Of a DNA stretch of 52,198 bases, positions 2,537 to 50,114 are shown piece by piece; position 1 is the stretch's first letter; each line of letters begins with the position of its first letter. Source of the stretch: Solirubrobacterales bacterium (GTDB taxonomy: Bacteria; Actinomycetota; Thermoleophilia; Solirubrobacterales; 70-9); the NCBI GenBank assembly GCA_035558995.1, contig DATMBY010000298.1, positions 1 through 52,198 on the forward strand, written 5' to 3'. The translations under genes and the position numbers were made by a program. The notes beneath the pieces were generated by a model. It was not told the origin of the DNA and did no database searches. It worked only from the letters and a program-made list of their open reading frames with translations.

Positions 2537-3847
2537 CTATGGTCGGCTGAGTTGGGAGCGGACGAAAAGGGAAACGGCGAGGGAGACGGCCAGCGCGATT
2601 AGGACCAGGAACGCTCGAGCTTCTCCGGAAGCGGAGAAGAGGCCGATGATCGTCGCCAGGGTAGTCAGGACTACAAGTCCGGAGCCGTAGACCTGGAGGT
2701 TTGCCAGCGCTTCGGCTTGCGCATCTTCGGCGCGGCGATGTTGTTGGGCGCTGTAGGTGGCCAGATCGCCCTCGAGGTCGTCGAAGAGGCGCTCGGTCCC
2801 CAGTTCGTCGCGAAGTCTCGAGAGAAGCTCCTGCGGCACCTCGGTACTGGTCGAAAGCTGCGACCACCAGACTGAATTCCGAAACGAGAGCCAGTCTCGG
2901 TGAAGGTCCTCGATTTCGGGCTTGAGGGGATCGCCGACCTCGGCGAGGCGATGCTGGAAATCCTCGAGACACTCCTGTTGCAGGAGGCCGAAGACGAGAC
3001 TCTCGGACCAGTAGGAACGGAGGTTGCGGGCGTAGGCGCCGTCGATGGGTCCGTCCACCGTGAAGGCGGTGCAGTTGCCGAGGACCAGTCCGGTTGCTCC
3101 CGCGTAGTGGACGGTCTGCCGGTCCTCCTTCTCCTGGTACTGCTTGCTCCACGCCCTCACCTTGGCTGAGCCGCGGCGTTTGGCGAGCGCTCGCCGCCAC
3201 GTCTGTTCATCGACGGAACAGCCACCGGGTGGCGGATACTCGGCCATCAGCACCGTGTAGAGGCTCTGCTCGAGATGGCGATGTGGGTCGCCGAACATCT
3301 CCTCGACCAAGGCGCGAACGGGGCGGGACGGGTCCAGGTCCTTGCCCCCGAGCGTCATCCGCAGCGGTTCCTTCCCGCGACGAAGCCCCGTCCGCAGCGC
3401 CCATCCCCACCAGAGTGCGTCCGGCGACGCCTCGCCGTCTGCGGCGGGTTCCAGCGACAGATGGATGAGACCGAAGGTACAGCCTGGCTTCAGGGGGGTA
3501 GTTACCCGCTCCAGCAGGTCGATGCGAGCGCGCCGCGATCTCCCGTCTCGTCGGTAGTGATCGAGGTGGAGCTCGTCGGGGCAGCAGAGCAAACGAGCCC
3601 CACGTTTGTTGCCAACGGGGAAGAGCAACTGGCTGACGTGAGCGCTGAAGTACGGCCATTCGTCTTCCCCCGGGAAGCGCTTGAAGGGGGGCACGCTCGT
3701 CGGGCTGGTGGGGGCGGCCTCACTGAGCCCGTCCGGTTCGGCGCCGACCGCTCGATCCCAAGGGTGCCAGCAAAGGTCGCCTTCGACAGGATGAGCCGAC
3801 TCGAGTCGGACGATCAGGACGGCCAATGCGTCGCAGCTGATGCCCAC
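2537..3847 (-). CDS. Hypothetical protein, 436 aa: soluble N-terminal region, coiled-coil-like segment, two C-terminal TM helices
   Basis: Long ORF with ordinary amino-acid composition. C-terminus is GSGLVVLTTLATIIGLFSA-SGEARA-FLVLIALAVSLAVSLFV. I recognise no family motif. Visibly less GC-rich than the core genes. Confidence 0.7.
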   Translation of the reverse strand: MGISCDALAVLIVRLESAHPVEGDLCWHPWDRAVGAEPDGLSEAAPTSPTSVPPFKRFPGEDEWPYFSAHVSQLLFPVGNKRGARLLCCPDELHLDHYRRDGRSRRARIDLLERVTTPLKPGCTFGLIHLSLEPAADGEASPDALWWGWALRTGLRRGKEPLRMTLGGKDLDPSRPVRALVEEMFGDPHRHLEQSLYTVLMAEYPPPGGCSVDEQTWRRALAKRRGSAKVRAWSKQYQEKEDRQTVHYAGATGLVLGNCTAFTVDGPIDGAYARNLRSYWSESLVFGLLQQECLEDFQHRLAEVGDPLKPEIEDLHRDWLSFRNSVWWSQLSTSTEVPQELLSRLRDELGTERLFDDLEGDLATYSAQQHRRAEDAQAEALANLQVYGSGLVVLTTLATIIGLFSASGEARAFLVLIALAVSLAVSLFVRSQLSRP

Positions 3848-3909
3848 TCGAGTGAGTTACGTCAAATCAGACCAATTCCCTCCAGCGAAACTTCCACTTT
3901 CGCCCAATT

Positions 3910-3954
3910 CGATGCCGGAGGAGGGACTCGAACCCCCGACACGCGGATTATGAT
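3910..3954 (-). repeat. att site (displaced 3' fragment of tRNA(CAT)), distal end of the element
   Basis: cgatgccggaggagggactcgaacccccgacacgcggattatgat is identical to 19711-19755. The sequences diverge immediately after (cgaggg vs tccgct). Confidence 0.9.
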
Positions 3955-4040
3955 CGAGGGCGATTGTTAAGGATTTCGCTCTGATAAGCGGAATCCCGTC
4001 CGGTTAGTGCAGTCCAGTTGGGCCTGTTTTTGCCTAGTCG

Positions 4041-4060
4041 GGGACACATCTCGGGACACA
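4041..4060 (+). promoter_or_regulatory. Two direct GGGACACA repeats (candidate arm-type integrase/Xis binding sites)
   Basis: gggacacatctcgggacaca, ~90 bp inside the att repeat and upstream of int. The same motif pair occurs at 19646-19666 near the other att site. Confidence 0.4.
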
Positions 4061-4094
4061 TTTTCAGTCCGAAGGAGGGCGCTACCCTCGGTTC

Positions 4095-5375
4095 ATGGCG
4101 TCGTCCTCGATCCATTTCCGCGAAGCACCGGTTAGCGGCCATGTCTTCCGCAAGGCCCGCAAGTCGGGCGACCGCTGGATGGCGAAGTGGCGAGATGGCG
4201 AGGGTCAGCATCAGGTCGTCCTCGGCCGAGTCTGGACGAAGCGGGGAAGACCCCCGGAGGGCTCCCTGACGAAGCAGGGCGCGCAGCGCGAGCTGGACGC
4301 GATCCTCGCCGACGCCAGGCGGAGCAACCTGACGAGCCGCCCCCGCCGCTCCAGCACGGTCACGTTCGGCGAGGCCGCACGAGAGTGGCTGCGCTACGTC
4401 GAGCACGACCGCAAGCGCCGCGCCTCGACCGTCAACGACTACCGCTGGATCGTGGAGCGGCGACTGCTGCCGGAGTTCGGATCGGCGACCTTGGAGTCGA
4501 TCACGACCCAGCGGATCGACGCATGGCGGTCAGGACTCGTCGCTGCTGGCGGCCTTGAAGATGGAGAAGCCCTGTCGGCGCGGACCATCAACAAGTACCT
4601 CGGTGTGATGCACAGCATCTTGAAACGCGCCCAGCGCGTCTACGGGCTCGCCGCCAACGCGGCGGCCTGGGCCGAGCGCCAGCCGGTCACTCGCTCCGGT
4701 GACTTCAACGTCCTATCGGCGCTGGAGGTCGAGGCGCTGGCGCGTGCTGCCCGTGAGGGGCGGCACCGCAAACCGCCGAAGCACGCCACTGGGGCCAATT
4801 GGCGAGCGAAGTTGCGCGAGCAAGATGAGCAGGACGCCGCGATCTTCCTCACCGCCGCCTACGCCGGTCTTCGGCTCGGCGAGCTCCGCAGTCTGCGCTG
4901 GCGCGATCTCGATTTCGGGAAGCGCTTGATCCACGTCCGGCACTCCTACGTGATGCGGACGGAGGACGTGCCGAAGTCCGGTCGCGTGCGCAGCGTCCCG
5001 ATGATCGACCAGGTCGCCGTGGCGCTCGACCAGCTGAGCCGTCGACCGGCGTGGACGGGCGACGATGATCTCGTCTTCGTCAACCCTGCCGGCGAGCACA
5101 TCGAGGACAGCGCTCTCCGCCGCCGCTTCTACGCCGCCCTAAAAGCTGCGGACCTCAAGCACCTTCGCTTCCACGACCTCCGCCACAGCTTCGGCACCCT
5201 CGCCGTCCAGGTCTTCCCGCTGACCGACGTGAAGGCGTACATGGGCCACGCCGACATCGCGACGACGATGATTTACGTCCATCACGTCCCGCGAGTGGAT
5301 GCCGCCGAAAAACTGTCGAGTGCCCTGCGGGCTTCAACTGCTCCGGCGCCCTCGGGTGAGCTAATAGCGGCATAG
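4095..5375 (+). CDS. int: Tyrosine recombinase / phage-type integrase
   Basis: C-terminal catalytic signature: LRLGELRSLRWRDLD (Arg), HDLRHSFGTLAV (HxxR), MGHADIATTMIYVH (Tyr). Sits next to the att repeat. Confidence 0.9.
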   Translation: MASSSIHFREAPVSGHVFRKARKSGDRWMAKWRDGEGQHQVVLGRVWTKRGRPPEGSLTKQGAQRELDAILADARRSNLTSRPRRSSTVTFGEAAREWLRYVEHDRKRRASTVNDYRWIVERRLLPEFGSATLESITTQRIDAWRSGLVAAGGLEDGEALSARTINKYLGVMHSILKRAQRVYGLAANAAAWAERQPVTRSGDFNVLSALEVEALARAAREGRHRKPPKHATGANWRAKLREQDEQDAAIFLTAAYAGLRLGELRSLRWRDLDFGKRLIHVRHSYVMRTEDVPKSGRVRSVPMIDQVAVALDQLSRRPAWTGDDDLVFVNPAGEHIEDSALRRRFYAALKAADLKHLRFHDLRHSFGTLAVQVFPLTDVKAYMGHADIATTMIYVHHVPRVDAAEKLSSALRASTAPAPSGELIAA

Positions 5376-5573
5376 TTAGGCGGCAAGGAAGCTTCCGATG
5401 TCCCCGCATTGCCTTGACTCCGTCCGAGGTGGCGGGCCGCCATCGAGAGACTGAACGGACTTCAGGCTGCTCTTTCCGAGCTTCGCAGACGGCTGCGCTG
5501 TCCGCGACGAATGGAATCTTCTTTAGATGCCTAAGGGAGCGGAAAGACTCGACCGGTCCATTAAGTTGAGGAT

Positions 5574-6545
5574 ATGCCGGGTCGAGAGCTAAAGCAGCTA
5601 TTCAAGGCTTACAGGGAGGGCGATGAGCTCGCCTTTCGCCGTGCTGCGCAGGAAATCATCGAGGACGAGGAGTCCAAGCAGCACATGGCCTTGGCGCGGG
5701 ACCTGCGAAAAATCATCGCGGGTGGCTCTGGTGCTGCAGTGGCAGAGGGGGTGGCTTTACCGGCGCCGCCGATGGACCGAGAGGGAGACTGGCCGCTTGC
5801 GGAGATTCGACACCCCGAGCAGGCCCTTTCCGAGCTGGTGCTTCCTGGGCCCCTACTTGAGCGGCTCCATGGTCTCGCAGCCGAGTTTGCCCGTTGGGAC
5901 GATCTGGATCGGCACTTCATCCCTCGTCGTCAACGTCTGCTGTTTTACGGACCGCCAGGGTGCGGGAAGACGACCGCTGCGGAGGCGATTGCCGCTGAGC
6001 TGGGGCTACCCCTGTTGATAATTCGCCTCGACGCTGTCGTTTCTTCCTACCTTGGCGAGACTGCGTCGAACCTCCATCGGGTTTTTGACTATGCCCGCTC
6101 GGGCTCCTGGGTTCTTCTATTTGACGAGTTTGATGCCCTGGGGAAGGCCCGCGATGATCCCTCTGAGCACGGTGAGATCAAGCGAGTCATTACGGCGTTT
6201 CTTCAGATGCTCGACGGGTTCCGAGGATCGAGCCTTTTGATCGCCGCCACTAACCACGAGCAACTTCTGGATTCGGCATTGTGGCGACGCTTTGACGAGG
6301 TCCTTACTTTCCCTCGCCCCACCGTCCACCAGCTGCGAAAAGTTCTGCGATTGCGACTGCGAGGAACCCAGCATCGAGGTCTAGATATTGAGGCGGCAGC
6401 GAGTGAGTTGAAGGGCCTGCCATATGCGGCCGCCGAGAAGGCGGTCTGGGACGCTCGCCGCAGCGCCTTGTTGTCCGGCCGCTCTGTCGTCGAAGATCGA
6501 GACATCAGCCGCGCCATCGCTGACATCAAGACCCGTCCCTGGTAG
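5574..6545 (+). CDS. ietA: AAA+ ATPase (IetA-like partner of the downstream S8 protease)
   Basis: Walker A GPPGCGKT (5949-5972), Walker B VLLFDEFDALG, LIAATNHEQLLDSALWRRFD. Lies 14 nt upstream of the subtilase gene on the same strand. Confidence 0.75.
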   Translation: MPGRELKQLFKAYREGDELAFRRAAQEIIEDEESKQHMALARDLRKIIAGGSGAAVAEGVALPAPPMDREGDWPLAEIRHPEQALSELVLPGPLLERLHGLAAEFARWDDLDRHFIPRRQRLLFYGPPGCGKTTAAEAIAAELGLPLLIIRLDAVVSSYLGETASNLHRVFDYARSGSWVLLFDEFDALGKARDDPSEHGEIKRVITAFLQMLDGFRGSSLLIAATNHEQLLDSALWRRFDEVLTFPRPTVHQLRKVLRLRLRGTQHRGLDIEAAASELKGLPYAAAEKAVWDARRSALLSGRSVVEDRDISRAIADIKTRPW

Positions 6546-6559
6546 GGGTAGGCAAACCG

Positions 6560-8902
6560 ATGGCCGAACACCTTCCCCTTCCTCCGCGCATTCCTCTGAG
6601 TAGTCGACGACAGCCGGCTCCAGGCGGAGGACCCCGTGCTCCAGAACGCAACCCTCGCCGTCACGGCCAACGACTAGCCCGACAGGTGATGGAGGCCACC
6701 GCATTCTCCTCCGAACTTAGAGTGGTCGAGGGTGTAGATCCTGGGCTGGTCTACAAGATCCGAGCAGCCCACGGGGTCGACGAAGAGAAGTTCACCAGCC
6801 GCGACTTAACCTTCCTTGGCGAGACTGGCGATTTCACCTACTTCGTTTACTCGGGAGAAGAGCCCGACAAATTGATGTCCCAGTTGCGCCGGTATGGCAG
6901 GGGGCCGGATGAAATGGGCGGGAAGGGAGACGGCCGGACGTTCTTCAACGTCTTGGAAGGGATCGAGCCATACGGTCCCGAGGACAGGAAAGGACGCGGG
7001 ATTCCCGAGGATCTGGGGGACCTCGAGGAGCCGGCGGTTGTCGATGTAGTCGCTTGGCCTTCTCATGACAGGACCGAGGCTGAACGCCGGCTTCAGCTGA
7101 TTCGCGCCGTTGTCGAGAGGCTGGGCGGGGAGGAGTTGGCTTCAGATACCCGACGGCAATTCACGGTTCTCCGCGGTCGGCTTCCCCGCAAGACCATCGA
7201 GGGATTGCTTGCGCTGTCGGCGGTAGAAAAACTCAACACGCCTCCGGTTCCTTTCCTGGAGCCCTCCGATTGGATGCAGCGCAGCCTTGATGACCTTGCA
7301 TTTGAGGGCGATGCCGACGGGGAGGCGATCGGTGTTCTCGACGATGGAGTTGCTTCCGGGCACCCGCTGCTCGACGGCCTCGTTGCAAGTGAGCGCTCGT
7401 TTCCCGAGGAACACGAGTGGCAGCCAATTGGTGCCCACGGAACTCTCGTTGCCGGCCTAGCAGCCTACGGCGATTTCGAGGTCCCGCTACGTGATGGACA
7501 TCTTCTAGAGGGTCGGGGGCCGATCCACTGCGCCCGCGTGCTAGAGCCCGATCCAGGTCCTACCACTGCTACGCGGTTTCCTCCTGGCTCCCTCGTTCAC
7601 CGGGTTATTGAAGAAGCGATCCGCACTCTTCATGACGAGGAGGGGGTCCGGGTATTCAACCTCTCCATCGGCTCGGAATATGCCTATTCAGGACCCCATG
7701 TCGCCCTTCCAACCGAGTCTCTCGACTTTCTGATTCGCGAGCTTGGAATCGTGGTGGTCGTCGCAGCTGGCAATCACCCTGTTCATCCAGCCGTCATGAG
7801 CATGGACAGCGGCGGCCACGTCCTCACCGACTACCCCAGCTATACCCTCCACGAGCTTGCCCGGGTTTGCGAGCCTGGTCCAGCGGCCCTCGCTCTAACC
7901 GTGGGCAGCATTGCTCGGTCCGATGCGCCTCAAACGCCAGATGGAACGGCAAGAGTCGGCGACCGTGCCGTCGCAAAAGCGGAAGAGATTTCCCCTTTTT
8001 CACGAACCGGACCCGGCGCGTACAAGGGAGTAAAGCCCGATCTCGTGGAGTACGGCGGCAACTGGGTGGTCAATGACACCGGCAATCTTGATTACGCCAA
8101 CTCAGGCGTCGCCAGCGTCTCGCTGGGGGACGGAGGGGGTCGCCTCTTTGGTCTGGCGGCTGGAACGAGCTTTGCCGCCCCTCGGGTGAGCCGTCTTGCC
8201 GCCGACATCTGGGGCCGATACCCGGATGCGTCGCCAAACCTTGTCCGGGCGCTAATCGGAATTGCCTCGCGGGTTCCACGGGCAGTCGAGGTGCAGTTTC
8301 CAGGGGACGAGGAGCGATTGAGGGCCGTGGGATACGGCCGACCTGTTCCCGAGTTGGCCTTGGACAGCGGCGTGAATCGAGTGGTCATGTACTTCGACGG
8401 TGAGATGGATGCCAATACCGTGGCTGTCCATCCGGTGCCCATTCCGGACTCCTTCGCTCGTGGGCGCTCACAACGTCGAATTTCGGTAGCGCTGGCGTTT
8501 GATCCCCCGGTGCGGCGTCAGCGGCGGGAGTACTTGGCCGGCGAGATGAGTTTTGACTTCCTGCGAAATGTCGAGCCTGACGAGATTGCGGCTCGCTATG
8601 CGCGGCAGGGAGCAGACCGAGTCGACCTTTGGACCGACCGTCACCGCTTGAAGTTGAAGCCGGGCTCCACTCGAACTGCAAGGAGCACGCTGCAAGTGCG
8701 CCGAATCTTCCCGCGCGAACTTCGCGTGGACGATGGTGACACCTACTACCTCGCGGTCAAGCACAAGCCTGCGCCTTGGTCCTCCGGCGGCACGCAGCGA
8801 TACGCGGTTGTCGTTGAGATCGTTGACGAGGAGCGACAGCAGCTGGACATCTACGCGGAGGCGAAACAGCAAATCCAGGTCCGGCCGAGACTGCGGGTCT
8901 AG
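6560..8902 (+). CDS. ietS: S8 (subtilisin-like) serine peptidase, 780 aa (IetS-like)
   Basis: Subtilase triad in canonical order: GVLDDG (D261, 7340-7342), HGTLVAG (H293, 7436-7438), AAGN, GTSFAAP (S537, 8168-8170). No signal peptide is evident, so it is likely cytoplasmic. Confidence 0.8.
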   Translation: MAEHLPLPPRIPLSSRRQPAPGGGPRAPERNPRRHGQRLARQVMEATAFSSELRVVEGVDPGLVYKIRAAHGVDEEKFTSRDLTFLGETGDFTYFVYSGEEPDKLMSQLRRYGRGPDEMGGKGDGRTFFNVLEGIEPYGPEDRKGRGIPEDLGDLEEPAVVDVVAWPSHDRTEAERRLQLIRAVVERLGGEELASDTRRQFTVLRGRLPRKTIEGLLALSAVEKLNTPPVPFLEPSDWMQRSLDDLAFEGDADGEAIGVLDDGVASGHPLLDGLVASERSFPEEHEWQPIGAHGTLVAGLAAYGDFEVPLRDGHLLEGRGPIHCARVLEPDPGPTTATRFPPGSLVHRVIEEAIRTLHDEEGVRVFNLSIGSEYAYSGPHVALPTESLDFLIRELGIVVVVAAGNHPVHPAVMSMDSGGHVLTDYPSYTLHELARVCEPGPAALALTVGSIARSDAPQTPDGTARVGDRAVAKAEEISPFSRTGPGAYKGVKPDLVEYGGNWVVNDTGNLDYANSGVASVSLGDGGGRLFGLAAGTSFAAPRVSRLAADIWGRYPDASPNLVRALIGIASRVPRAVEVQFPGDEERLRAVGYGRPVPELALDSGVNRVVMYFDGEMDANTVAVHPVPIPDSFARGRSQRRISVALAFDPPVRRQRREYLAGEMSFDFLRNVEPDEIAARYARQGADRVDLWTDRHRLKLKPGSTRTARSTLQVRRIFPRELRVDDGDTYYLAVKHKPAPWSSGGTQRYAVVVEIVDEERQQLDIYAEAKQQIQVRPRLRV

Positions 8903-10366: not shown

Positions 10367-11599
10367 TCACGCACTATCATCCCCTCCCCGGAGGGCCTGA
10401 TTACGCCCGCTGCGGCCCGCCGGCTGCCAGTCGGCGACGAGCCGTCGGTAGGCGACCTCCGCCTGGGCCGCAAGCTCCTTCTCGAGTCGCTTCCGCTCCG
10501 TCGCGCTGACCTTCGCCCGCTTGCCGCCACCACCACGGCGCCGCTTCGCCCCGGCGTCCAGCTCGGCCTTGCGGATCTTCTGCGCCACCAGCGTCGGGCG
10601 GGCGAAGGCGTAGTCCTCGCCGCGGGTGAGCATGTGCCAAGCGACCGTCACCAGCTTGCGAGCCACGGCGACGGTGGCGACGTTCTGGCCCCGGCGACCC
10701 GCGACCCGCTCGCCGAAGGCCTTCATCGGCCCGGTGGAGCGGCGCGCATGCAGGGCGGCCTCGACGAGGACGTGGCGCCCGTAGCCGGGGCCGCGCTTGG
10801 AGATCCGCCCGTGGCGGGCGGGCTCAGAGCCCGACTGCGCCACCTTGGGGTCGAGCCCCAGGTAGCCGACCAGGTGGCGCGGGCTCGGGAAGCGCGAGAT
10901 GTCGCCGATCGCCGCCATCAGCGCCGTCGCCGCCACCGCCCCGAACCCCGGCAGGCTCATCAGCCGACGGATCTCCGCCGAGCCCACCACCTGCTCGGCG
11001 ATGCGGCGGTCGATCAGCTCGATCTCGGCATTGAGGAAGTCGACCTGGCGCAGGCAGGCGTCGACCGTCTCGGCCTCGTCGGTGGGCAGCGGCTGGGTGG
11101 CAAGCCAGCTTCGGCCGTTGACCCCGAACAAGTCGCTCATCGGCGCCTTGCCGCGCAGGTTGCGGACCAGCACCGCGTGGACCTGGTTCTTCTCGCGGGT
11201 GCGCTGGCGCACCAGCTGGTAGCGGCGGCTGATCAGCCGCCGCCTCACCCGCGTTGCCTCGTCGGGCATCCAGACCGCGGTGAGGAAGCCGCCGGCGCCG
11301 AGCTGGGCCAGCGCCCTGGCGTCGAGGCGGTCGGTCTTGGGGCCGTTGCCGAGGCGCTCGCGGACCTTCCTGGGGTCGGCCAGCACCACCCGGGCCACGT
11401 GGGGCTCGATCGCCGCGGCGATCGCCCGGGCGTTGCCGCTCATCTCCATCGCCACCTGATCGTCTTCGCCGAGGCTCCCGGCGAAGAGCTCCAGGTCCTC
11501 CTCGGTGCTCTTGACCCGGCCGGCGCTTCTGACCTCGCCGGCCTCCCAGATAGCCACCTCGCAGAAGTCGCGGTGGACGTCCATCCCGATGAATCGCAT
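10367..11599 (-). CDS. IS110-family transposase/recombinase
   Basis: MRFIGMDVHRDFCEV (D), AMEMSGN (E), KTDRLDARALA (D..D), and C-terminal domain LPGFGAVAATALMAAIGD...GLDPKVAQSGS. Start moved to Met19 of track ORF 10367..11653. Confidence 0.9.
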   Translation of the reverse strand: MRFIGMDVHRDFCEVAIWEAGEVRSAGRVKSTEEDLELFAGSLGEDDQVAMEMSGNARAIAAAIEPHVARVVLADPRKVRERLGNGPKTDRLDARALAQLGAGGFLTAVWMPDEATRVRRRLISRRYQLVRQRTREKNQVHAVLVRNLRGKAPMSDLFGVNGRSWLATQPLPTDEAETVDACLRQVDFLNAEIELIDRRIAEQVVGSAEIRRLMSLPGFGAVAATALMAAIGDISRFPSPRHLVGYLGLDPKVAQSGSEPARHGRISKRGPGYGRHVLVEAALHARRSTGPMKAFGERVAGRRGQNVATVAVARKLVTVAWHMLTRGEDYAFARPTLVAQKIRKAELDAGAKRRRGGGGKRAKVSATERKRLEKELAAQAEVAYRRLVADWQPAGRSGRNQALRGGDDSA

Positions 11600-11860
11600 C
11601 GCCTGCTCCTCTCGCTCGGATTGGGCGGAAGGGGCGGCGGGCAAGAACGGCAACTACGGATTCGGGCTCTCGGCCCATCCGGGCATTCGCAGGGGCGGCC
11701 AGCTATCAACTGCGGGCTCTCGGCCCATAAGGCGTGCGGCCTGCCCGGCCTGCGCTCTTCCACAGAGCCCCCGGCCCGGAGCATCGGCGAGGACGCTAGG
11801 CGCCGCCGCGGACGGTCCCGGAAGAGGCTCCAGGGGCAGTTTCATGCCCCTATCACTGCG
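11600..11860 (-). ncRNA. Candidate IS110 bridge (seeker) RNA region in the transposase 5' leader
   Basis: Non-coding leader of the length and position where IS110-group elements encode their guide RNA. Contains two identical 16-nt hairpin units, cgggctctcggcccat, at 11663-11678 and 11713-11728, exactly 50 nt apart. A GGGGCA/TGCCCC hairpin lies at ~11835-11852. Not verified by a covariance model. Confidence 0.35.
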
Positions 11861-12399: not shown

Positions 12400-15300
12400 A
12401 TGCTCTCCATCGGCAAGATGGGCGGCGGCCAGGAGCGCTACTACCTGGGCAAGGTCGCCGAAGGTGCCGAGGACTACTACTCCGGGGAGGGGGAGGCCGA
12501 GGGCTACTGGCTAGGCGATGCCGCCGAGGATCTCGGCCTCCAGGGCAAGGTCGATTCCGACCAGCTGATCGGGATGCTGACCGGCTCCAACCCGGCTACC
12601 GGGGAGCCGCTCGGCCTGCGTCACGTCCAGGGCGGCCCGGTCCCCGGCTTCGATCTCACCTTCTCGGCGCCGAAGTCGGTCTCCCTGACCTGGGCGCTCG
12701 GCGGCCATCCAGTCGCCGCCGAGGTCAAAGCCGCCCACGTCGAAGCGGTCAAGGCGGGTCTCGACTATCTCCAGAGTGAGGCTTGCTTCACCCGGCGCGG
12801 CGCGGGTGGTCACGCGTTCCTCAAGGGCAACGGCTTCCTCGCCGCCGGCTACACCCACCGCTCCTCCCGCGCCGGCGATCCGCAGTTGCATACCCATGTC
12901 CTCGTCGCCAACGCCACCTTTGCCGACGGCCGCTGGACCCGCCTCTACCACCCGGCGATCTATGAGCACGCGAAAACTGCCTCCTACATCTACGAGGCCC
13001 ACCTTCGCGATGAGCTGACCCACCGTCTCGGAGTCCGCTGGAGCGAGGTGAAGAACGGCCTCGCTGAGATCGAGGGCTACGATCCCGATCATCTCCGCGC
13101 CTTCTCGACCCGTCGCCAGCAGATCCTCGAGGCGGCGGGGGAGGGGGCCTCGGCTCGCGCTCGGCAGATCGCGACCCTGGAGACCCGGGCGGCCAAGGAC
13201 ACCGACCTGAGCACGGAGAGCCTGCGGGATCTCTGGCGCGAGAAGGCCGAGGAGATCGGCCTCACCCGCGAGTCGATCCGCGCCGCCCTCGGCCACGAGC
13301 GCCAGGCGCCGGAGGGGCGGGTCTCCGTCGCCGAGGTGGAAGCGGCCCTCACCGCGCATCGCTCCCACTTCGACCGCCGCGAGGCGATCCAGGCAGTTGC
13401 CGACTGCCTCCCGGCCGGGGCACCGGGGGAGGAGGTCACGGAGCTTGCCGACGCCTACCTCACCCGGCCGAAGGTGATCCCGATCGCGGCCACCGCCAAA
13501 GGCGAGCGCTACACCACCCGCGCGATCTGGGAGATGGAGCGCACGGCGCTTGAGAGGCTCGAGGCGATGGCCGCCACCGAGGACCGCGCCGCAGTCTCGG
13601 AACTAGTGACCGCCCGCGTCCTCGCCAAGCGGCCGTCGATGAAGCCCGATCAGCGGGTGATGGTCGAGCGGCTCCTCACCGGCGGCGGGGGCGTGGCCGT
13701 GGTGGTCGGCGAGGCCGGAACCGGCAAGACCTACGCGCTGACCGCCGCCGCCCACGGCTGGGCGCACGACCGCACCGAGCTACGGGTCGCGGCGCCGACG
13801 TGGCGGGCGGCCAACGTCCTTCGTTCGGAGGGTCTTAGCGCCACTAGCGTCGCCAGTCTCCTCGCCGAGCTTGACCGCGGCACCGCGGCGGGGCAGCAAG
13901 TGCTCGCCCGCGGATCGGTCCTGGTGGTCGACGAGGCCGGAATGGTCGATTCCCGCGCGCTGGCGCGGCTTGTCCAGCACGCCCACGAGGCCGAGGCGAA
14001 GCTCGTCCTGATCGGCGATCCGGCGCAGCTGGGGGAGATCGAGGCGGGCGGCCTCTTCGCCTCGATCGCGGCGAGGACGGAGCCGATCGTCCTCGATGAA
14101 GTGATCCGCCACCACCACGACCTGGAGCGCGAGGCGGCGAAGATGGTCCGCGAGGGCGAAGGGCGGCAGGCGATCTCTGTCTACCAGGGCGCCGAGCGCG
14201 TCACGGTCTCTGACGACCCGCTGGCGCGGCGCGAGGCGATGATCGCCGACTGGTGGCAGAGCTTCCAGCGCGGCGAGGACGCGCTGATGATCGCAAAGAC
14301 CAACCGCGAGGTCGCGGCGCTGAACGCGCTGGCGCGGGAGCAGATGAAGGCGGCGGGCCAGTTGGGGGCGGACGAGATCGAGGTCGGCGAAGCTCGCTTC
14401 GCTGCCGGCGATCAGGTCATCACCCGGATCAACGACCAGCGCCAGAACATCTACAACCGCGAGCGCTGGCGCGTGGCGGAGGTTGACCGGGAGTCCGGGA
14501 CCGTGGAGTTAGTCGGAATCGACACCCGGGGGCGGGTGTGTGTCGATTCCGACTACTTGGGGCGGGTCAGGGAGAGGGATGGAGGGCCTGCGCTGGAACA
14601 CGCCTACGCGGCGACCACCTACCAGGCCCAGGGGGCGACGGTGGACACCGCTTTCGTCATGGCCGATCCCTCGATGGACCGCCAGGAGTTCTACGTCGCC
14701 ACCTCCCGCAGTCGCGAGGGCACCTACCTCTACGCCACCCCCGAGGTCAACTTCGACCGCGACGAGTACGCGCCGCGCTCACAGATGCGAGAGGGCCTCG
14801 ACCACATCGCCGAGGCGGCCGAGCGCGACGGCGCCCAGGTCTCCGCGCACGACGCGGTGCTGCGGGCCGAGCTCGACGGGCTCCCACCGGCCGATCTCGC
14901 TCGCCGGGTCCGCGAGATCCACGCCGAGGCCGGCGCCGAGCGCCACAACGAAGCCCGCCATCTCAGAGCCGAGAAGGAGATCGAGCGTCACAGCGAGCAC
15001 CTCGAGCACTACCGCTCGGCCACTCACTCTGTGCATCCCTCTAATGAAGAACGCGCGCGGGAGCAGATCGCGGCGGCGAGGGCAGAGCGCGAGCAGCTGC
15101 CCGAGATCGGCCATGAGGCCCGCGCGAAGGCGGCGGTGGCGGAAAGCGTTCTCGCAGAACGCGAACGCGCCGCCGCGACCGCCGCCCGTCTGTCGCCTCC
15201 CGACTACATCACCAGGGAGCTTGGCGAGCGCCCAAACGATCCGACGAAGGCCCGCGAGTGGGACAAGGCGGTGCAAGGGGTCGAGGGCTACCGGGTCAGA

Positions 15301-15471
15301 AACGGCGTGGGGGACAGAGACAACGCTCTCGGGCCGAAGCCCCACGACCACTCCCAGACGCACGAGCACGCACGGGCCGAACGGCAGCTACAGCAGGCCC
15401 AGCGGCGCTTGCAGCTTCAGCGAAGCCAGCAACGTGCCGCTGAGCAGGCCATCCACTTGGGGATCGGATGA
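12400..15471 (+). CDS. MobF-family conjugative relaxase fused to TraA/RecD-like helicase (TrwC/TraI type)
   Basis: N-terminus MLSIGKMGGGQERYYLGKVAEGAEDYYSGEGEAEGYWLG (catalytic Tyr pairs), HRSSRAGDPQLHTHVLVAN (His triad), helicase Walker A GEAGTGKTY, VLVVDEAGMV. Confidence 0.9.
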   Translation: MLSIGKMGGGQERYYLGKVAEGAEDYYSGEGEAEGYWLGDAAEDLGLQGKVDSDQLIGMLTGSNPATGEPLGLRHVQGGPVPGFDLTFSAPKSVSLTWALGGHPVAAEVKAAHVEAVKAGLDYLQSEACFTRRGAGGHAFLKGNGFLAAGYTHRSSRAGDPQLHTHVLVANATFADGRWTRLYHPAIYEHAKTASYIYEAHLRDELTHRLGVRWSEVKNGLAEIEGYDPDHLRAFSTRRQQILEAAGEGASARARQIATLETRAAKDTDLSTESLRDLWREKAEEIGLTRESIRAALGHERQAPEGRVSVAEVEAALTAHRSHFDRREAIQAVADCLPAGAPGEEVTELADAYLTRPKVIPIAATAKGERYTTRAIWEMERTALERLEAMAATEDRAAVSELVTARVLAKRPSMKPDQRVMVERLLTGGGGVAVVVGEAGTGKTYALTAAAHGWAHDRTELRVAAPTWRAANVLRSEGLSATSVASLLAELDRGTAAGQQVLARGSVLVVDEAGMVDSRALARLVQHAHEAEAKLVLIGDPAQLGEIEAGGLFASIAARTEPIVLDEVIRHHHDLEREAAKMVREGEGRQAISVYQGAERVTVSDDPLARREAMIADWWQSFQRGEDALMIAKTNREVAALNALAREQMKAAGQLGADEIEVGEARFAAGDQVITRINDQRQNIYNRERWRVAEVDRESGTVELVGIDTRGRVCVDSDYLGRVRERDGGPALEHAYAATTYQAQGATVDTAFVMADPSMDRQEFYVATSRSREGTYLYATPEVNFDRDEYAPRSQMREGLDHIAEAAERDGAQVSAHDAVLRAELDGLPPADLARRVREIHAEAGAERHNEARHLRAEKEIERHSEHLEHYRSATHSVHPSNEERAREQIAAARAEREQLPEIGHEARAKAAVAESVLAERERAAATAARLSPPDYITRELGERPNDPTKAREWDKAVQGVEGYRVRNGVGDRDNALGPKPHDHSQTHEHARAERQLQQAQRRLQLQRSQQRAAEQAIHLGIG

Positions 15472-15683
15472 TGAGCCGGTCGGTCGAAGACCCCCAGGCC
15501 ATCGGTTCGCTTGAAGAGCCGCTACTCAACGCCGATGAAGCTGCGCAGCTACTTCACGTTCCCCGGAGCACGCTCTATGAGTTGGTCCGATCCCGGCATC
15601 TGCCGCATGTGCGCGTGGGTCGGGCGCTTCGCTTCACCCGGCACGATCTCGCCGATTGGGTGAGGGCCAATACGTTCCGCTAG
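15468..15683 (+). CDS. Excisionase-type / MerR-like helix-turn-helix DNA-binding protein
   Basis: LLNADEAAQLLHVPRSTLYELVRSRHLPHVRVGRALRFTRHDLADWV is the typical Xis/AlpA HTH_17 pattern. Its start overlaps the relaxase stop. Confidence 0.75.
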   Translation: MMSRSVEDPQAIGSLEEPLLNADEAAQLLHVPRSTLYELVRSRHLPHVRVGRALRFTRHDLADWVRANTFR

Positions 15684-15817: not shown

Positions 15818-18800
15818 CTATTTGTTGAGTCCATCGTCTTTGAGCAACTTGGCGAGCTTGCTGGCGAAATCTCCGCCCACCACATGACAGCTTTCGCAGC
15901 CAGTGTTGGTTGCGGGGTTTGCCTGTTCACACCGCATACACGTCCAAGGACGAGGATCGCGATCCGCGCCTAGGAGCGTCGTTCGCACGTCTTGCGGTAG
16001 GGGTGCTTCCAACGACTCAACCATGGTGGTCCGTACTTCATCGTCAGGGTCGGCAAGCACCTCGGGAAGCAAGGTCGGCGGTTCTCCGCTCTGGACCCCA
16101 GCCGCTATCCGCCAGGCAGCGGCGTTGCGTAGCCAGATGTCGTCGTCGTTGAGCCATTCTGTGACGCGCTCGGTGTTCTCGACGGAAAGAACAAGACGTG
16201 CTGCCTCGAAGCGGCTCATTCGTCGCAATCGCGGAAGCAGCTCAACGATCTCCTCGATGTCAGGTTCCTCCATGCCGCTGTTGGCCAGGGCTTGGATGGC
16301 CCGCCATGAGAACCAACTCCCTAGTGAAAGGGCGCGGTGCAGCAAGCGTCTCGTTGCATGACGGTCCTCGACCCGATCCCAGGCATCAAAGGTGAGCAAC
16401 GCGCCCTTCATGTTCAGCATCGACTCAAGCTCCTCCCGATCCTCGGGATGACGGTCTCCTTCTTTGAGCACGTAGGCCGCCTCGGATGCGATCAGTGCGA
16501 GGTCCACGCCGCTTAGGCGGGCCAGAATCAGCATGCACTCGCGCAAAGTCTTGGGTGCCGCTTGGAGGGTGTTAGAAGGGGCATAAGCCGGGGCGTCGGG
16601 AAGGCCAAGGGTCGACCAGAGGTTCACGAGCTCATCAAGGCGTCGTCGTTGGCCTGCTCGGAGGTCAATCGGGTCTGCCGCCGTGGTGAGCCAGCGCAGG
16701 AATTCACGGTCCGCTTCGTGGCGGAGTTTCAGCTCGCCAACGAATCGGCGTGCACGCGCTATGCCCCCGTAGCGTTCATCTCGACGGCGATCCAGGTCGG
16801 CGACGATCTCCTGATTCGCGAAGCGGCGCAGCAGGATCTCTAGCGCGTCGGCATGTCTCCCGCCCACCTCCTCGACCAGCTGCAGCGCGCGGGTGGCGAG
16901 TGAGGGGTCTTTTGGCAGCAAGCGCTCAAGCGAGTGATGGATCGCACGGCTCCAGATGGGATCCGCGATCGCCAGAGCCAAGACGAAAGCACCACCCGTC
17001 CCCTCCGCTTTCTCGCGCTTCGGTGGGTCGGTATCGATTACGTCGCGGATCGCTCTCTTCTCGGCCGCGCTCGGATGGTCGGCTTTGAGCGCGAGTAGGG
17101 CTTCGAAGCTCGGCCTCTGATCAGCGGGAAGCCGAGAAAGCGACCGGCGCGTCTTGTCACGAAGCTCTTTAGGTAGATCGAGTTTCAGCAGCGCCTCGGC
17201 TGCAGCGCGCCGCTCGTTTTGGTCTTCGGATTTCAGTACCTCGATCAAGGCGCTGGCCAACAAGTTGCGCTTGCTCGCACCTTGCCCGGATGCACCAGCA
17301 GTGACGTCGTTGGCCCGCAGGACCAAGTCCGGCACACGGCTTGCATCCGCTATGTCAACTGCCTCGCGGGCGAGGCGTTGAGAGAGCTGACACGCGAGGC
17401 GCAGGGTCTCAACTAGGTCGGGATCTCCAAGAGCTGTTTCGACCCACTCTGACCCTTCGGCGTCCGTGAGTTTCGAGGCTCGCCAAGCCTCACCTACCTC
17501 GACAAAGAGGCGCAAGCGGGGGAATAGTCGTCCGTCTGATCCGCAGACGAAAAAGCCAGCCTGATCCCAGAAGGCGATCACATCATCTGCGCAAACGTCA
17601 GCGCTCGGTGCGGTGAGTTGGAATCCCTCGCGGAGCGCGTTCGCGACAGCGTGCCGGCATTCATCAATGACAGGTAGCTCTTGCTCGGTAAGCATGCGGG
17701 AAAGAGCGAGAAAGCCCTCGATTAGCGCTCGGCGGGCGAGTCCTTCTTGGAGGGGTCCGACCTGGGCTCGCTCACCGATCGCCTCCCACTGCACGATCAC
17801 CGATTCCAAGATCTCGACCATGACCGTTGCGCGATTGCCGGGCAGAGTTTCCTCGTCCCCAACGGCAGCCCGCATCGCGAGCAACACGGCAAGTAGAGGC
17901 GTTTCGGCCAGCGCGTCGTCGCGGTCCAGCCATTCCTTGACCCAACTGATCCGAGCTTTGACCCACTCATCTCCATCGGCAGGCGAATATCTGGACGCGA
18001 GTTCTTCAAGCACGGCTCGCGCGGTATCCAGCGACTCGCGAGGAGCCAATAACCGCAACTCAAAGAATCCGAGGCTTGCGGCATCTGCATAAGCGAGATC
18101 GCGAGTCGCGATGACGATCTCGGCGTCCGGATCGAGCTCGGAGAAAAGGTCCTTTAGCTGACGGAGGACCTCATGGCGGCCCTCGCGCGCCTCATCAAGG
18201 GCATCGAGGACAAGGACAATTCCAGGCCCGTTTAGAGCGTCATCAAGCTGAGACGCCAGAACTTTCCGGTCCATTCCTGAAGCCGAGGACGTGGCGAGTT
18301 CGACAAGGGCCTTTCTAACCCCGTGTTCCCCGAGGCGTTTGCTGAGCATGTCGAGACGGACGATGATCGGAAGCGGCCAGCCTGGTCGCTTTGCGTATTC
18401 AGAAGCGACTGCGCGAAGCGCGGTGCTCTTTCCGGAGCCGGGAAGGCCCGTGAGAAGGACTCGGCCGCGTCGGCGGAGCGCCCAAGTGAGCGGGTCGCCA
18501 TAACGCTCCTCTTCGAACGTGCCCGGTCCCCCAGGGCTTACCTCCACCTCGGCGTCGGCTCGCTCAAGCGTCAACGGCGGGATCGTTGCGGCAAGGCCCG
18601 CGAAGTCGAGCGTTTCGCCGCGACGCTGGACCCGCTCTAGGTAACGAGCCATTGCGCCCCTGCTGGCTCCGGTTGAACCCGGTTCATCCTCGCGGAGGGG
18701 CAGCTCGGTGCCCCGTAGGGCGTCGCAAAGTTGCTGGCGATCAAACCCATACCGGAGGCGAGCGCCCTTGCCGCAGACGTTCAGAAGTCGCTCCCAAGCC

Positions 18801-19420
18801 GCGTCTCGGTGATTCTCTGGAACGACACGGGCGCCAAGCATCTGGCGACACTGTGCCGTCGCAGCCTCAAGCTCGTCAGAGACCCGCATGACCCAAATCT
18901 GAGCGCACCGCAGAAGCCGCGCGCGGTCTTTAGGAGAAAGATTTCCGAGGCACTTTTCGAGGCGGTCCAGCTGCTCCCGCTCGACCCCATCGACATTAGC
19001 GGCGCCATTTTGCCGGAGCCGGTCCAACGCGGACTGCAAGATTTCGACATCTGGACTAACTCGGTGGGCCAAGGCGACAACCCGGTCTTGCTTCGGGTCG
19101 AGCCCGGTCGCCTTCATTTGCTCTACCCACTGGTCGGCAACCCAGCGAAGGCCCGTGGAACGGTGGGATCGGAAGTTCAGCGTGCTGCGAGCCTGAACGT
19201 AGAGATGCCCACCATTGGAAAGCCGACAGACGATGTCGTCTACAGGGTCATCCGCTTGTAGGCGGATGTGCTGAGGAATTGCCTGCTCTTGAAAATCGAG
19301 TTGCCGCAGAGCCTCGGCTGCAAGGCAGTGGCTGGCGAGATAGGCGGCGGCCCCCCTCTCGTGCTCACTGCCTTTCCAGTTGGCGGCCCCGCCTATGCCT
19401 CGTGAGTTCATTGTTTCCAC
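15818..19420 (-). CDS. NACHT/STAND P-loop NTPase, 1200 aa, with C-terminal HEAT repeats and a terminal RanBP2-type zinc finger (bacterial NLR/Avs-like)
   Basis: Walker A GLPGSGKST (aa 325-333, nt 18422-18448), Walker B IVLVLDALDEA. HEAT/PBS-lyase-like repeats (EDQNERRAAAEALLKL, DDDIWLRNAAAWRIAAG, DPDDEVRTTMVESLEA). WTCMRCEQANPATNTGCESC (aa 1159-1178, nt 15887-15946). The start is GTG 19420; ATG 19411 is an alternative. Confidence 0.85.
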   Translation of the reverse strand: METMNSRGIGGAANWKGSEHERGAAAYLASHCLAAEALRQLDFQEQAIPQHIRLQADDPVDDIVCRLSNGGHLYVQARSTLNFRSHRSTGLRWVADQWVEQMKATGLDPKQDRVVALAHRVSPDVEILQSALDRLRQNGAANVDGVEREQLDRLEKCLGNLSPKDRARLLRCAQIWVMRVSDELEAATAQCRQMLGARVVPENHRDAAWERLLNVCGKGARLRYGFDRQQLCDALRGTELPLREDEPGSTGASRGAMARYLERVQRRGETLDFAGLAATIPPLTLERADAEVEVSPGGPGTFEEERYGDPLTWALRRRGRVLLTGLPGSGKSTALRAVASEYAKRPGWPLPIIVRLDMLSKRLGEHGVRKALVELATSSASGMDRKVLASQLDDALNGPGIVLVLDALDEAREGRHEVLRQLKDLFSELDPDAEIVIATRDLAYADAASLGFFELRLLAPRESLDTARAVLEELASRYSPADGDEWVKARISWVKEWLDRDDALAETPLLAVLLAMRAAVGDEETLPGNRATVMVEILESVIVQWEAIGERAQVGPLQEGLARRALIEGFLALSRMLTEQELPVIDECRHAVANALREGFQLTAPSADVCADDVIAFWDQAGFFVCGSDGRLFPRLRLFVEVGEAWRASKLTDAEGSEWVETALGDPDLVETLRLACQLSQRLAREAVDIADASRVPDLVLRANDVTAGASGQGASKRNLLASALIEVLKSEDQNERRAAAEALLKLDLPKELRDKTRRSLSRLPADQRPSFEALLALKADHPSAAEKRAIRDVIDTDPPKREKAEGTGGAFVLALAIADPIWSRAIHHSLERLLPKDPSLATRALQLVEEVGGRHADALEILLRRFANQEIVADLDRRRDERYGGIARARRFVGELKLRHEADREFLRWLTTAADPIDLRAGQRRRLDELVNLWSTLGLPDAPAYAPSNTLQAAPKTLRECMLILARLSGVDLALIASEAAYVLKEGDRHPEDREELESMLNMKGALLTFDAWDRVEDRHATRRLLHRALSLGSWFSWRAIQALANSGMEEPDIEEIVELLPRLRRMSRFEAARLVLSVENTERVTEWLNDDDIWLRNAAAWRIAAGVQSGEPPTLLPEVLADPDDEVRTTMVESLEAPLPQDVRTTLLGADRDPRPWTCMRCEQANPATNTGCESCHVVGGDFASKLAKLLKDDGLNK

Positions 19421-19710: not shown

Positions 19711-19755
19711 CGATGCCGGAGGAGGGACTCGAACCCCCGACACGCGGATTATGAT
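19711..19755 (-). repeat. att site forming the 3' part of the intact tRNA(CAT)
   Basis: Identical to 3910-3954. Covers tRNA nt 33-74 plus 3 nt downstream. Confidence 0.9.
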
Positions 19756-19787
19756 TCCGCTGCTCTAACCAGCTGAGCTACTCCGGC
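19714..19787 (-). tRNA. tRNA with anticodon CAT (elongator Met, or Ile2 if lysidinylated)
   Basis: Manual cloverleaf: GCCGGAG TA GCTC AGCTGGTTA GAGC A GCGGA ATCATAA TCCGC GTGTC GGGGG TTCGAGT CCCTC CTCCGGC A. The G1:C72 pair and the lack of three G:C pairs at the bottom of the anticodon stem argue against an initiator. CCA is not encoded. Confidence 0.9.
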
Positions 19788-48956: not shown

Positions 48957-49046
48957 TTGACCTAATCATTTTTGACGATTGATCCAAATGGCGCAATCGT
49001 TTAGCCTGCGCCAGTCTCTCCGGTGAGGAAGCAGGCGATAAGCCAA

Positions 49047-49104
49047 GCGCTTCTGGGGAAAAATCACCAGGGGAGGAGAGACGCGCTCTATATGTGTGGA
49101 TCCG
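49047..49104 (+). repeat. Copy A of a ~59-nt conserved non-coding direct repeat
   Basis: gcgcttctgggg..cagggGaggagaga..ctctatatgtgtggatccg. Shares three near-identical blocks with 50390-50448. Confidence 0.75.
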
Positions 49105-49190
49105 CTTGGGGAATCGGATCTCTCGCGCCCGCCGCTTAGGCCGGGGCGCGAGGCGCGTCTGCAGCTAGGCAGGGCGGTGGTCGGCCAAAG

Positions 49191-49223
49191 AAAAAGCGCC
49201 CGCCGATGGCGGGCGCTTTTATT
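49191..49223. terminator. Bidirectional intrinsic terminator
   Basis: aaaaaGCGCCCGCCgatGGCGGGCGCttttatt. 9-bp GC stem flanked by an A-run and a T-run. Lies 19 nt downstream of the stop of the minus-strand gene 49242..50114. Confidence 0.8.
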
Positions 49224-49241
49224 CCTCCTATGCGTTCTGCA

Positions 49242-50114
49242 CTATTTGTTGGCCCGCACGTATGCGGCTTCGCCCAGGTAGCTGGTTCCTTTGAGTTCAG
49301 CCGTGTTGGTGCCCGCGGCCGCCGGTACTCCGACGATCGAGTTCACGAGCGGATCGACTGCCCAGGAGAACAGGAAGCCTCCGCAGCCGTTCGCACCCGG
49401 CGCCGCAAACGAGTTGTCGACCAGGTTGTTGTTTTTCAGAGCGATGATCCTGAATTCTTCGAGACCTTCGAATTCGCCACCGCTGCCTTTGATCGGCGTG
49501 TTCGGCGGGGGCGGCGAGGTCGTGCCCGCGGTCAGGTTGAGTTTGATCGGATTCGAGTTGGACCCGATGTAGCAGCTGCTCCCGAGGAACGGGTTGTCCA
49601 GCTTGACCTTGACCGGCATCGCAAGGGCAATGCCTTCCTGGTTGAGGATATTGATCGGCGCCAGTTTCACCGATGAAGCCGGTCCGGCCAGTTCAACCGT
49701 CGCCGTCACGCCGGTAAAGCCGTTGTTGATGGTTTCGTTGAACAGGTCCTTGAGGATCTGCGGCCACCAGCTGGGAGCCGTGACTCCGAGGAGCCCGCCC
49801 GGCACCGGCTGAGCTGATTTGGACAGAACCTGCCCGTCGGTGGGCGCGTAGAAGTTCTGCGGCCCAAGCGGGTTTTCCGGTTCTATGTAGTCGGCTCCTC
49901 CCTTGAGGATCACCGGGTTTTTGATCGGCACGGCCTTGCTGCCCATCGTGAACGTTCCCGAGGTGGTTTCCGCGTACACGCAGAAGTCGATTGCGGTGAC
50001 GGCCGTCGGGCACTGCTGGAAACGCGCCCACGGCCCGGTGAGCGTCGCAGAGGCGGACGAGGCGGGCACGAGCATCACGGCAAGCGCGGCCACGACCAGA
50101 AATAGCCTTCTCAT
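49242..50114 (-). CDS. Secreted hypothetical protein (290 aa, signal peptide, 4 Cys)
   Basis: MRRLFLVVAALAVMLVPASSASA signal peptide. Asn/Gly/Pro-rich mature part with no motif I recognise. Lower GC than neighbours. GAAAGGA SD upstream of the ATG. Confidence 0.8.
   Translation of the reverse strand: MRRLFLVVAALAVMLVPASSASATLTGPWARFQQCPTAVTAIDFCVYAETTSGTFTMGSKAVPIKNPVILKGGADYIEPENPLGPQNFYAPTDGQVLSKSAQPVPGGLLGVTAPSWWPQILKDLFNETINNGFTGVTATVELAGPASSVKLAPINILNQEGIALAMPVKVKLDNPFLGSSCYIGSNSNPIKLNLTAGTTSPPPPNTPIKGSGGEFEGLEEFRIIALKNNNLVDNSFAAPGANGCGGFLFSWAVDPLVNSIVGVPAAAGTNTAELKGTSYLGEAAYVRANK

Follow-up and report, generated by a model that had tools for sequence, protein, structure and literature searches.

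In the antiviral STAND (Avs) proteins SeAvs3 and SeAvs7, as described in the main text of PMC13581612, a phage protein binds the helical sensor and frees a Cap4 head that is otherwise held by the nucleotide-binding domain (NBD) and the C-lobe of the sensor; ATP-dependent tetramerisation then assembles an active double-stranded DNA nuclease. The same text (Lee et al. 2026) catalogues 198 defence STAND clades and makes no mention of zinc or RanBP. The bacterial NACHT (bNACHT) proteins are defined, in the text of Kibby et al. (bioRxiv 10.1101/2022.07.19.500537), by D[GAS]hDE at Walker B, and restriction endonuclease (REase), HEAT and zinc-ribbon (ZnR) domains stand there among the fused domains of their catalogue. 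Here we describe an NLR-like gene at 15818..19420 on the minus strand of a 52,198-nucleotide stretch of Solirubrobacterales DNA (contig DATMBY010000298.1, hereafter the window), the product of which combines a Cap4-like nuclease head, a NACHT module, an alpha-solenoid and a RanBP2-type zinc ribbon. The gene is cargo of a 15.8-kb integrative mobilisable element at tRNA-Met and probably encodes a single-gene immune receptor of the Avs-like kind.

Like Avs3 and Avs7, this one gene joins a Cap4-type PD-(D/E)xK head to a STAND NTPase and a large alpha-helical repeat sensor, and the Avs3 head (SeAvs3, PDB 8dgc) is a direct structural match to the head found here. It differs from both in having a bona fide NACHT NTPase (D[GAS]hDE), an unrelated solenoid and an invariant RanBP2-type ribbon at its end; compared with Avs3 it is also shorter (1200 amino acids (aa) versus 2028), belongs to an actinobacterial family and, in its clade, carries Arg in place of the catalytic Lys. 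The PADLOC v2 Avs models (AVAST types 1-5) gave no match at E ≤ 1, the same library finding an Avs2 gene near one relative at 9.8e-271. With the bNACHT proteins it shares the defining NACHT signature and the effector-NACHT-repeat tripartite layout, whereas a Cap4-type head with a terminal RanBP2 finger is not described in the text of Kibby et al., and none of the bNACHT proteins tested there could be shown to belong to this family. Cap4, LmuA, HamA (AbpA) and HerA-DUF4297 resemble the head in fold and in the order of motifs, with GG..G..(F/Y)...A near the N-terminus and D...(E/Q)xK after it, but the fusion partner of the domain is NACHT here, where theirs are SAVED, SMC or helicase partners.

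Of the PADLOC PDC-M54A profiles, which are 1621-1657 positions long, only the first ~360 positions match this protein, over the head and the beginning of its P-loop domain; the better match (E 9e-24) covers aa 7-243, and together with the second (E 7.5e-21) it extends over aa 7-361. PDC-M54 is a multi-gene candidate, itself uncharacterised; the PADLOC PDCs are 'guilt-by-embedding' predictions (Payne et al., bioRxiv 10.1101/2024.01.29.577857). The PDC-M54 models matched none of the eight island genes scanned, and a full-text literature search on PDC-M54 found no paper. By sequence comparison, the protein falls outside AVAST types 1-5 and PDC-M54 as modelled in PADLOC. Its general kind is nevertheless known, since Cap4-STAND-repeat sensors, REase-NACHT-HEAT proteins and bNACHT zinc ribbons are on record and the catalogued clades already number 198; the family may itself figure among those clades. 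A preliminary description of this DNA, made from the letters and translations, had not recognised the domain combination as a described subtype. That view needs dividing: the general kind is on record, but for the combination with an invariant RanBP2 finger at the sensor tip nothing was found in the searchable literature, where a search for RanBP2 fingers on bacterial STAND or Avs proteins turned up a single related statement, on the RanBP2-like zinc modules of YprA helicases.

Domain architecture and conservation of the protein

The open reading frame (ORF) at 15818..19420, the longest in that part of the window, opens with GTG at 19420 and has 1200 codons. A start at the ATG at 19411 (M4) is favoured for two reasons, the GGTGGA in front of it and the closest homologue, P0002, which begins at the corresponding position; the true protein is probably 1197 aa long. 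The length of 1200 aa given earlier holds for the ORF counted from GTG, but probably not for the protein. Translation placed every motif quoted in the preliminary description where it had been reported: GLPGSGKST at aa 325-333, VLVLDALDEA at aa 402-411, IVIATRD at aa 435-441, the zinc-finger motif WTCMRCEQANPATNTGCESC at aa 1159-1178, and GG..KG..ERGAAAYL, DDPVDDIV and LYVQAR all within aa 10-78. The AlphaFold2 (AF2) model of the full-length protein was confident (predicted local distance difference test (pLDDT) 87.0, predicted TM-score (pTM) 0.77). Conservation was counted over 113 full-length relatives, in all of which D62, Q76, K331, D406, D409, R440, C1161, C1164 and C1175 are invariant; such invariance or near-invariance puts the motifs beyond chance. 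In a public gene call, apparently from the same contig (ENA ERZ27228624 k141_1542931; positions 3001-5835 of locus L019, equivalent to window 15818-18652), the gene begins at an internal Met and yields 944 aa, and in the same annotation the region of the nuclease head is covered by a spurious 176-aa ORF called on the other strand. Because public calls shorten the protein to 944 aa and drop the nuclease head, automated surveys may under-annotate the family.

The family is sizeable and uniform in layout. A search of 5.8 billion proteins returned 60 relatives, nearly all of ~1200 aa and collinear end to end, and a profile of sensor plus finger matched at least 279 of 1.84 billion representatives (clusters at 50% identity) at E ≤ 1e-30, a number that rises to 900 when the cut-off is relaxed to E ≤ 1e-10. 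The best 150 of the 279 strong representatives were either ~1200 aa long with the sensor at ~640-1200 or fragments of that layout. We had considered effector swapping on the finger-bearing sensor and reject it for the strong matches, given the one layout shared by these best 150. Most of the family comes from Actinomycetota and soil metagenomes; Acidimicrobiia, Solirubrobacterales, Microbacterium, Actinomycetospora and Vicinamibacterales are represented among the relatives.

A Cap4-type PD-(D/E)xK nuclease head is predicted at aa 17-240 (18701..19372; this and all other features of the protein lie on the minus strand) from the AF2 model, Foldseek and PADLOC PDC-M54A, and is followed at aa 241-310 (18491..18700) by a helical linker and pre-NACHT region delimited in the models. 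For aa 1-300, AF2 modelling with 24 relatives gave a pLDDT of 84.3 and a pTM of 0.78. When this model was submitted to Foldseek, all 20 PDB matches at E ≤ 1e-3 were Cap4-type defence nucleases (HamA/AbpA, LmuA, Cap4, Avs3), among them HamA 8zue_A (9.7e-6), LmuA 9hr5_C (1.1e-5), Cap4 6wan (4e-5) and Avs3 8dgc_A (9e-5), with a Foldseek probability of 1.0 and template modelling (TM) scores of 0.41-0.47 to these four; HerA-DUF4297 ranked 21st (E 1.9e-3). Pfam searches with aa 1-309 and the 24 relatives gave noise only, and when a head profile was run on the sequences of the PDB it retrieved H-NS and bL20, both spurious, and HamA/AbpA 8zue_A at no better than E 0.46. The assignment of the head was thus resolved by structure-based search with predicted models, sequence searches having failed. 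The loose resemblance to Cap4/DUF4297-type heads that had been noted before is upheld by the confident model and by matches that are all Cap4-type defence nucleases. Within aa 10-27 (window 19340-19393) there is also a near-invariant Gly-rich motif (G10, G11, G17, A26), with G in 82-91 of the 92 members aligned there; aa 1-16 were modelled at pLDDT <50, and the motif aligns with GG..G..F at the AbpA/HamA N-terminus.

The active-site stretch, defined by family conservation, spans aa 55-78 (19187..19258) and holds Q55, D57, D61, D62 and Q76-A-R78. The family consensus of the head reads GGAxxEAG...A, then E.D...DD and, after ~14 residues, Q-A-K. D62 and Q76 are present in 113/113 relatives and D61 in 111/113, whereas position 78 is occupied by Lys in 103 and by Arg in the other 10, this copy among them, so the Arg noticed in the preliminary description is borne out by the alignment. 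The catalytic D...(E/Q)-x-K triad is accordingly a feature of the family that this copy has in part, with D61/D62 and Q76 in place and R78 in the third position. With the catalytic Lys replaced, nuclease activity may be weak or absent in this protein. The family consensus has its counterpart in the DUF4297 triad D41/E59/K61, and in HerA-DUF4297 substitution of the equivalent K61 abolished nuclease activity. These facts speak for a head that, on the same scaffold, would in the R78 clade be catalytically dead or re-purposed, whether to bind DNA, to oligomerise, to act as decoy or regulator, or to kill by sequestration instead of DNA cutting. We judge this unlikely, because several observations run the other way. 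The change of Lys to Arg (codon 78, within window 19187-19195) had at least 3-4 independent origins by nearest-neighbour analysis, which suggests tolerance; D61, D62 and Q76 are retained; and, among R-clade members, identity is higher in the head than in the sensor (0.78 vs 0.66 to P0002 and 0.54-0.60 vs 0.43-0.47 to P0003-6), which argues that the head is under selection and not decaying. Decay of the R78 head was for that last reason rejected as the principal explanation. PD-(D/E)xK enzymes with a third residue other than Lys exist, BamHI being an example, and this too was counted against a dead head.

The NACHT nucleotide-binding domain (aa 311-480, 17981..18490) was recognised by Pfam and by its invariant residues. 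Pfam NACHT (PF05729) matched aa 321-445 with 33.1 bits against a threshold of 26.7 (E 5.9e-8). Within the domain, the Walker A motif GLPGSGKST (18422-18448) has G328, G330 and K331 in 113/113 relatives. The Walker B/NACHT signature DALDE (within 18188-18217) corresponds to D[GAS]hDE as D406-A-L-D409-E410, with D406, D409 and A, G or S at position 407 in 113/113 and E410 in 112/113. R440, in the sequence TRD, is kept in 113/113. A NACHT-associated helical and winged-helix region follows at aa 481-640 (17501..17980), as judged from secondary structure and Foldseek. The best PDB matches to the full-length model were NOD2 (8.8e-7), NLRC4 (1.5e-6), NLRP3 and NAIP5 over 560-740 aligned columns, its N-terminus also matching LmuA and Cap4. 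All four features tested were present, and the protein belongs to the NACHT clade of STAND NTPases; the earlier call of a NACHT/STAND NTPase is confirmed by the Pfam score, the signature and the NOD2, NLRC4 and NLRP3 fold matches.

The sensor is an alpha-solenoid of HEAT/ARM-like type at aa 641-1150 (15971..17500), all-helical in the model and of ~510 residues. Foldseek matched it to the HEAT solenoid CAND1 (7e-4), whereas the Pfam HEAT_2 match was weak, at 23.1 bits against a threshold of 27.7. The stretch of ~650 aa that had been described from sequence as helical repeats with clear HEAT units is indeed helical, but it comprises the NACHT helical and winged-helix region (aa ~481-640) as well as the ~510-aa solenoid, and by Pfam its HEAT character is only weak. 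The solenoid is the most divergent domain, with a mean pairwise identity of 0.238 compared with 0.389 for the NBD, a divergence that fits a receptor in an arms race.

At the C-terminus, Cys conservation and a tail profile delimit a RanBP2-type zinc ribbon at aa 1157-1184 (15869..15952), with the motif W-x-C-x2-C-x3-N-x6-C-x2-C at 15887-15946, followed by an amphipathic helix at aa 1185-1200 (15821..15868; helix 1185-1195 in the model, consensus ..A..LL..) that is missing in a few relatives. The motif of this copy fits W-x-C-x(2,4)-C-x3-N-x6-C-x2-C exactly; the strict pattern is found in 53/113 relatives and a relaxed one in 77/113. The preliminary description had staked its finger on conservation of the Cys motif among homologues, and the four Cys are indeed kept in 113, 113, 113 and 112 (C1178) of the 113, the Asn in 101 and the Trp in 92, being otherwise mostly Phe or Tyr. 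Pfam PF00641 (Zn_ribbon_RanBP) scored this copy alone below threshold (14.6-14.8 vs 27 bits), matched 15/28 tails at E ≤ 1 (best 3.3e-5), and outscored every other family there. The tail profile matched, in the PDB, fingers of Nup358 (8e-15), RanBP2 (6.8e-13) and Nup153 (5.9e-9; single finger 1.9e-5), archaeal eL40 (1e-5), RBM10 (2.4e-5) and the NZF fingers of HOIL-1L, Npl4 and TAB2/3 (down to 1e-3). By pattern and profile the finger is of RanBP2 type, as proposed before, although under the Pfam cut-off, and zinc binding is predicted. The fingers of Nup358, Nup153, Npl4, TAB2/3, HOIL-1L, ZRANB2 and archaeal eL40 are alike in motif or profile; unlike in those eukaryotic and archaeal proteins, a single finger here sits at the tip of a bacterial NLR sensor.

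The residues after the second finger Cys are G-T/H-x-N, and we take the finger, from inspection, to be without the T-F of ubiquitin-binding NZF, the L-V of Ran-binding Nup153 and the N-F/W-x-x-R of RNA-binding ZRANB2. As these subclass-defining residues appear absent, the ligand class is not transferable from known fingers. Its extreme C-terminal position and its invariance make the finger a candidate ligand site or latch. Relatives on Streptomyces and Rhodococcus megaplasmids have the head and NACHT in common with this protein (25-29% identity over aa 1-680) and align there only. One of them, from Streptomyces angustmyceticus plasmid p1 (WP_260640487.1; L024 6001-9207), is 1068 aa long and combines the same Cap4-like head and NACHT with a shorter sensor and no finger; it adjoins genes for a serine recombinase, a DNA methyltransferase and a type IV secretion system (T4SS). 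Given that the plasmid relatives align over aa 1-680 only and that the Streptomyces one is without the finger, the finger-bearing sensor defines a distinct subfamily.

The tRNA-Met island and the neighbourhoods of relatives

The gene lies next to tRNA-Met (19714-19787, minus strand), as had been stated. A 45-nt repeat over the 3' end of this tRNA gene, attR (19711..19755), recurs as an identical copy, attL, at 3910..3954 in a perfect direct repeat, which places the NLR-like gene inside a bounded 15.8-kb insert; its earlier description as cargo of a mobile element is thereby proven. From the left the insert encodes a tyrosine integrase (4095..5375, plus strand; Pfam Phage_integrase 1.1e-29) and the pair IetA (5574-6545) and IetS (6560-8902), together at 5574..8902 on the plus strand (PADLOC 2.6e-88 and 3.6e-92; Pfam AAA and Peptidase_S8). 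IetAS, an AAA ATPase with an S8 subtilase, is a described defence pair and the second defence cargo of the island. An IS110 transposase gene (10367-11653, minus strand; Pfam DEDD_Tnp_IS110 and Transposase_20) lies mid-island at a local GC fraction of 0.68-0.70, above the rest of the island, and may be a secondary insertion. A TrwC relaxase gene (12400-15471, plus strand; Pfam TrwC 1.4e-84) and an HTH_17 excisionase-like gene (15468-15683, plus strand; HTH_17 2.7e-16) are convergent with the NLR-like gene, and two XRE-type regulators are also encoded. GC is ~0.70-0.76 in the flanks (~0.72), which encode housekeeping enzymes, ~0.60-0.65 at both ends of the insert and ~0.67-0.72 in the centre around IS110 and TrwC. 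No T4SS or coupling protein was seen on the element, which is therefore probably mobilisable rather than self-transmissible. The island is a 15.8-kb integrative mobilisable element at tRNA-Met with two defence cargos.

Two further features lie outside the element. Just beyond attL, an ORF of 436 aa (2537-3847, minus strand; GC 0.65) has weak Bestrophin-like (Pfam 6e-4) and CorA-like (PADLOC 1.6e-11) matches and may be what is left of an earlier insertion at this tRNA site. A low-GC stretch at 49000-51000 (0.61-0.63) holds a 290-aa ORF (49242-50114, minus strand) with no Pfam match, beside a TlyA/FtsJ-type methyltransferase gene.

Eleven homologue contexts were inspected, a small sample to which no statistical test was applied. 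Markers of defence, toxins or mobile elements are present in about 8 of the 11 and in the window as well, in keeping with the defence-island setting in which the preliminary description had proposed to look for homologues. One homologue lies on an integrative and conjugative or mobilisable element (ICE/IME) with integrase, TrwC and a type IV coupling protein (T4CP) (L001), and another on an element like those of actinomycetes (AICE-like) with Rep, FtsK/SpoIIIE, NUDIX, WhiB, Xis and Int (L002). Others stand with SIR2, PLD and toxin-antitoxin genes (L003), abut type I cas genes (cas3) and integrases (L004), or are accompanied by DitA-like, DUF4062, Schlafen and PtuB-like genes and Avs2 (L010, the context of the 9.8e-271 match). 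Weaker cases are a homologue followed by DUF5677, with AbiEi ~9 kb off (L006), and one between HipA and PDC-S39 in Microbacterium sp. SA39 (L011); one contig (L020) was too short for any annotated neighbour, and L021, L022 and L023 are taken up below. No neighbour was conserved across the examined contexts, which argues for a single-gene system. A DUF5677 (DitA-like) gene occurs near the homologue in two unrelated contigs (L006 13712-15352, L010 5640-7283), recurrent but not universal. The homologue of L010 (10004-13572; an Actinomycetota metagenome-assembled genome, palsa_610) is split into ORFs of 992 and 197 aa, by a frameshift or an assembly error, and lies 3 kb upstream of the full Avs2 gene.

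These surroundings also bear on whether the gene serves the mobile element rather than its host, as an inter-element competition, exclusion or addiction module directed at rival plasmids, ICEs or incoming DNA and not at phage. The position of the gene between the TrwC relaxase gene and attR of an integrative mobilisable element would suit such a role, as would the relatives on ICE/IME and AICE elements and the head-plus-NACHT relatives on Streptomyces and Rhodococcus megaplasmids. Other relatives, however, lie in chromosomal defence islands with Avs2 or CRISPR-Cas, or without mobile context, and a search of phage genomes for homologues found none. We consider service to the element improbable as the main role of the gene, while noting that anti-phage and element-serving roles are compatible and not mutually exclusive.

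Proposed function and significance

We favour, with moderate confidence, a single-gene NLR-like immune receptor (antiviral STAND, Avs-like) that is carried by the tRNA-Met island and would act as SeAvs3 and SeAvs7 do. The preliminary description had proposed a bacterial NLR/Avs-like sensor on a mobile element, and the domain identities, the conservation, the island and the defence-rich neighbourhoods of relatives all support it. At rest, an ADP-bound NACHT and the C-terminal lobe of the alpha-solenoid would keep the Cap4-type nuclease inactive. A protein or structure derived from a phage or other invader would bind the fast-diverging solenoid, with the terminal zinc ribbon forming part of the ligand site or of an autoinhibitory latch. 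Nucleotide exchange would lead to NACHT oligomerisation, and the Cap4 heads, brought side by side, would then make up an active PD-(D/E)xK nuclease, the cleavage of DNA by which would abort the infection. In this scheme, what sets the receptor off, how many subunits assemble, that DNA is cleaved and what the zinc finger does are inferred by analogy with those two systems.

Several results weigh against the immune-receptor reading. The TM-scores of the head are moderate, and no sequence model of Pfam DUF4297 or of PADLOC Cap4, LmuA or HamA matched the head in this protein or in the 24 relatives at E ≤ 1-10. The Lys of (E/Q)xK is Arg in this copy and in its five closest relatives. No solved Avs sensor appeared among the Foldseek matches of the solenoid, and, of the contexts inspected, L021 and L023 have metabolic neighbours only and L022 an integrase fragment only.

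A housekeeping signal-transduction STAND ATPase, akin to the regulators MalT and AfsR and with no immune role, is rejected as highly improbable: STAND clades do switch between defence and non-defence roles, and two-component genes lie near the homologue in two contexts, but the protein is without a DNA-binding output domain and has a nuclease head common to defence proteins, its distribution is patchy, mobile-element-borne and single-copy, it matched no NCBIfam housekeeping family, and neither a conserved regulon or partner gene nor vertical inheritance was seen.

Taken as an immune receptor, the protein enlarges the bacterial NLR/Avs repertoire by a sizeable uncharacterised family (at least 279 clusters at 50% identity). 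With a true NACHT module joined to a Cap4 nuclease, this family takes a place midway between the proteins grouped as 'Avs' and those grouped as 'bNACHT'. A bolder proposal, which we hold to be unlikely, is that the zinc ribbon is a functional receptor tip, in direct contact with an invader ligand, be it protein or nucleic acid, or latching the Cap4 head in its inactive state, and that the Lys-to-Arg heads are a working PD-(D/E)xR nuclease variant. If it were true, this would be the first bacterial NLR with a RanBP2/NZF-type finger in immune sensing, and would parallel, on the prokaryotic side, the NZF fingers that TAB2/3 and HOIL-1L use in the innate-immune signalling of eukaryotes. The conserved finger, with its four Cys, offers a mutable handle on trigger binding or autoinhibition in such sensors, and the recurrent Lys-to-Arg change is a natural test of the variation tolerated in a Cap4 active site. 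The 15.8-kb island, with IetAS and the NLR-like gene, constitutes a compact defence cargo on a mobilisable element, which could be transferred whole to a model actinobacterium.

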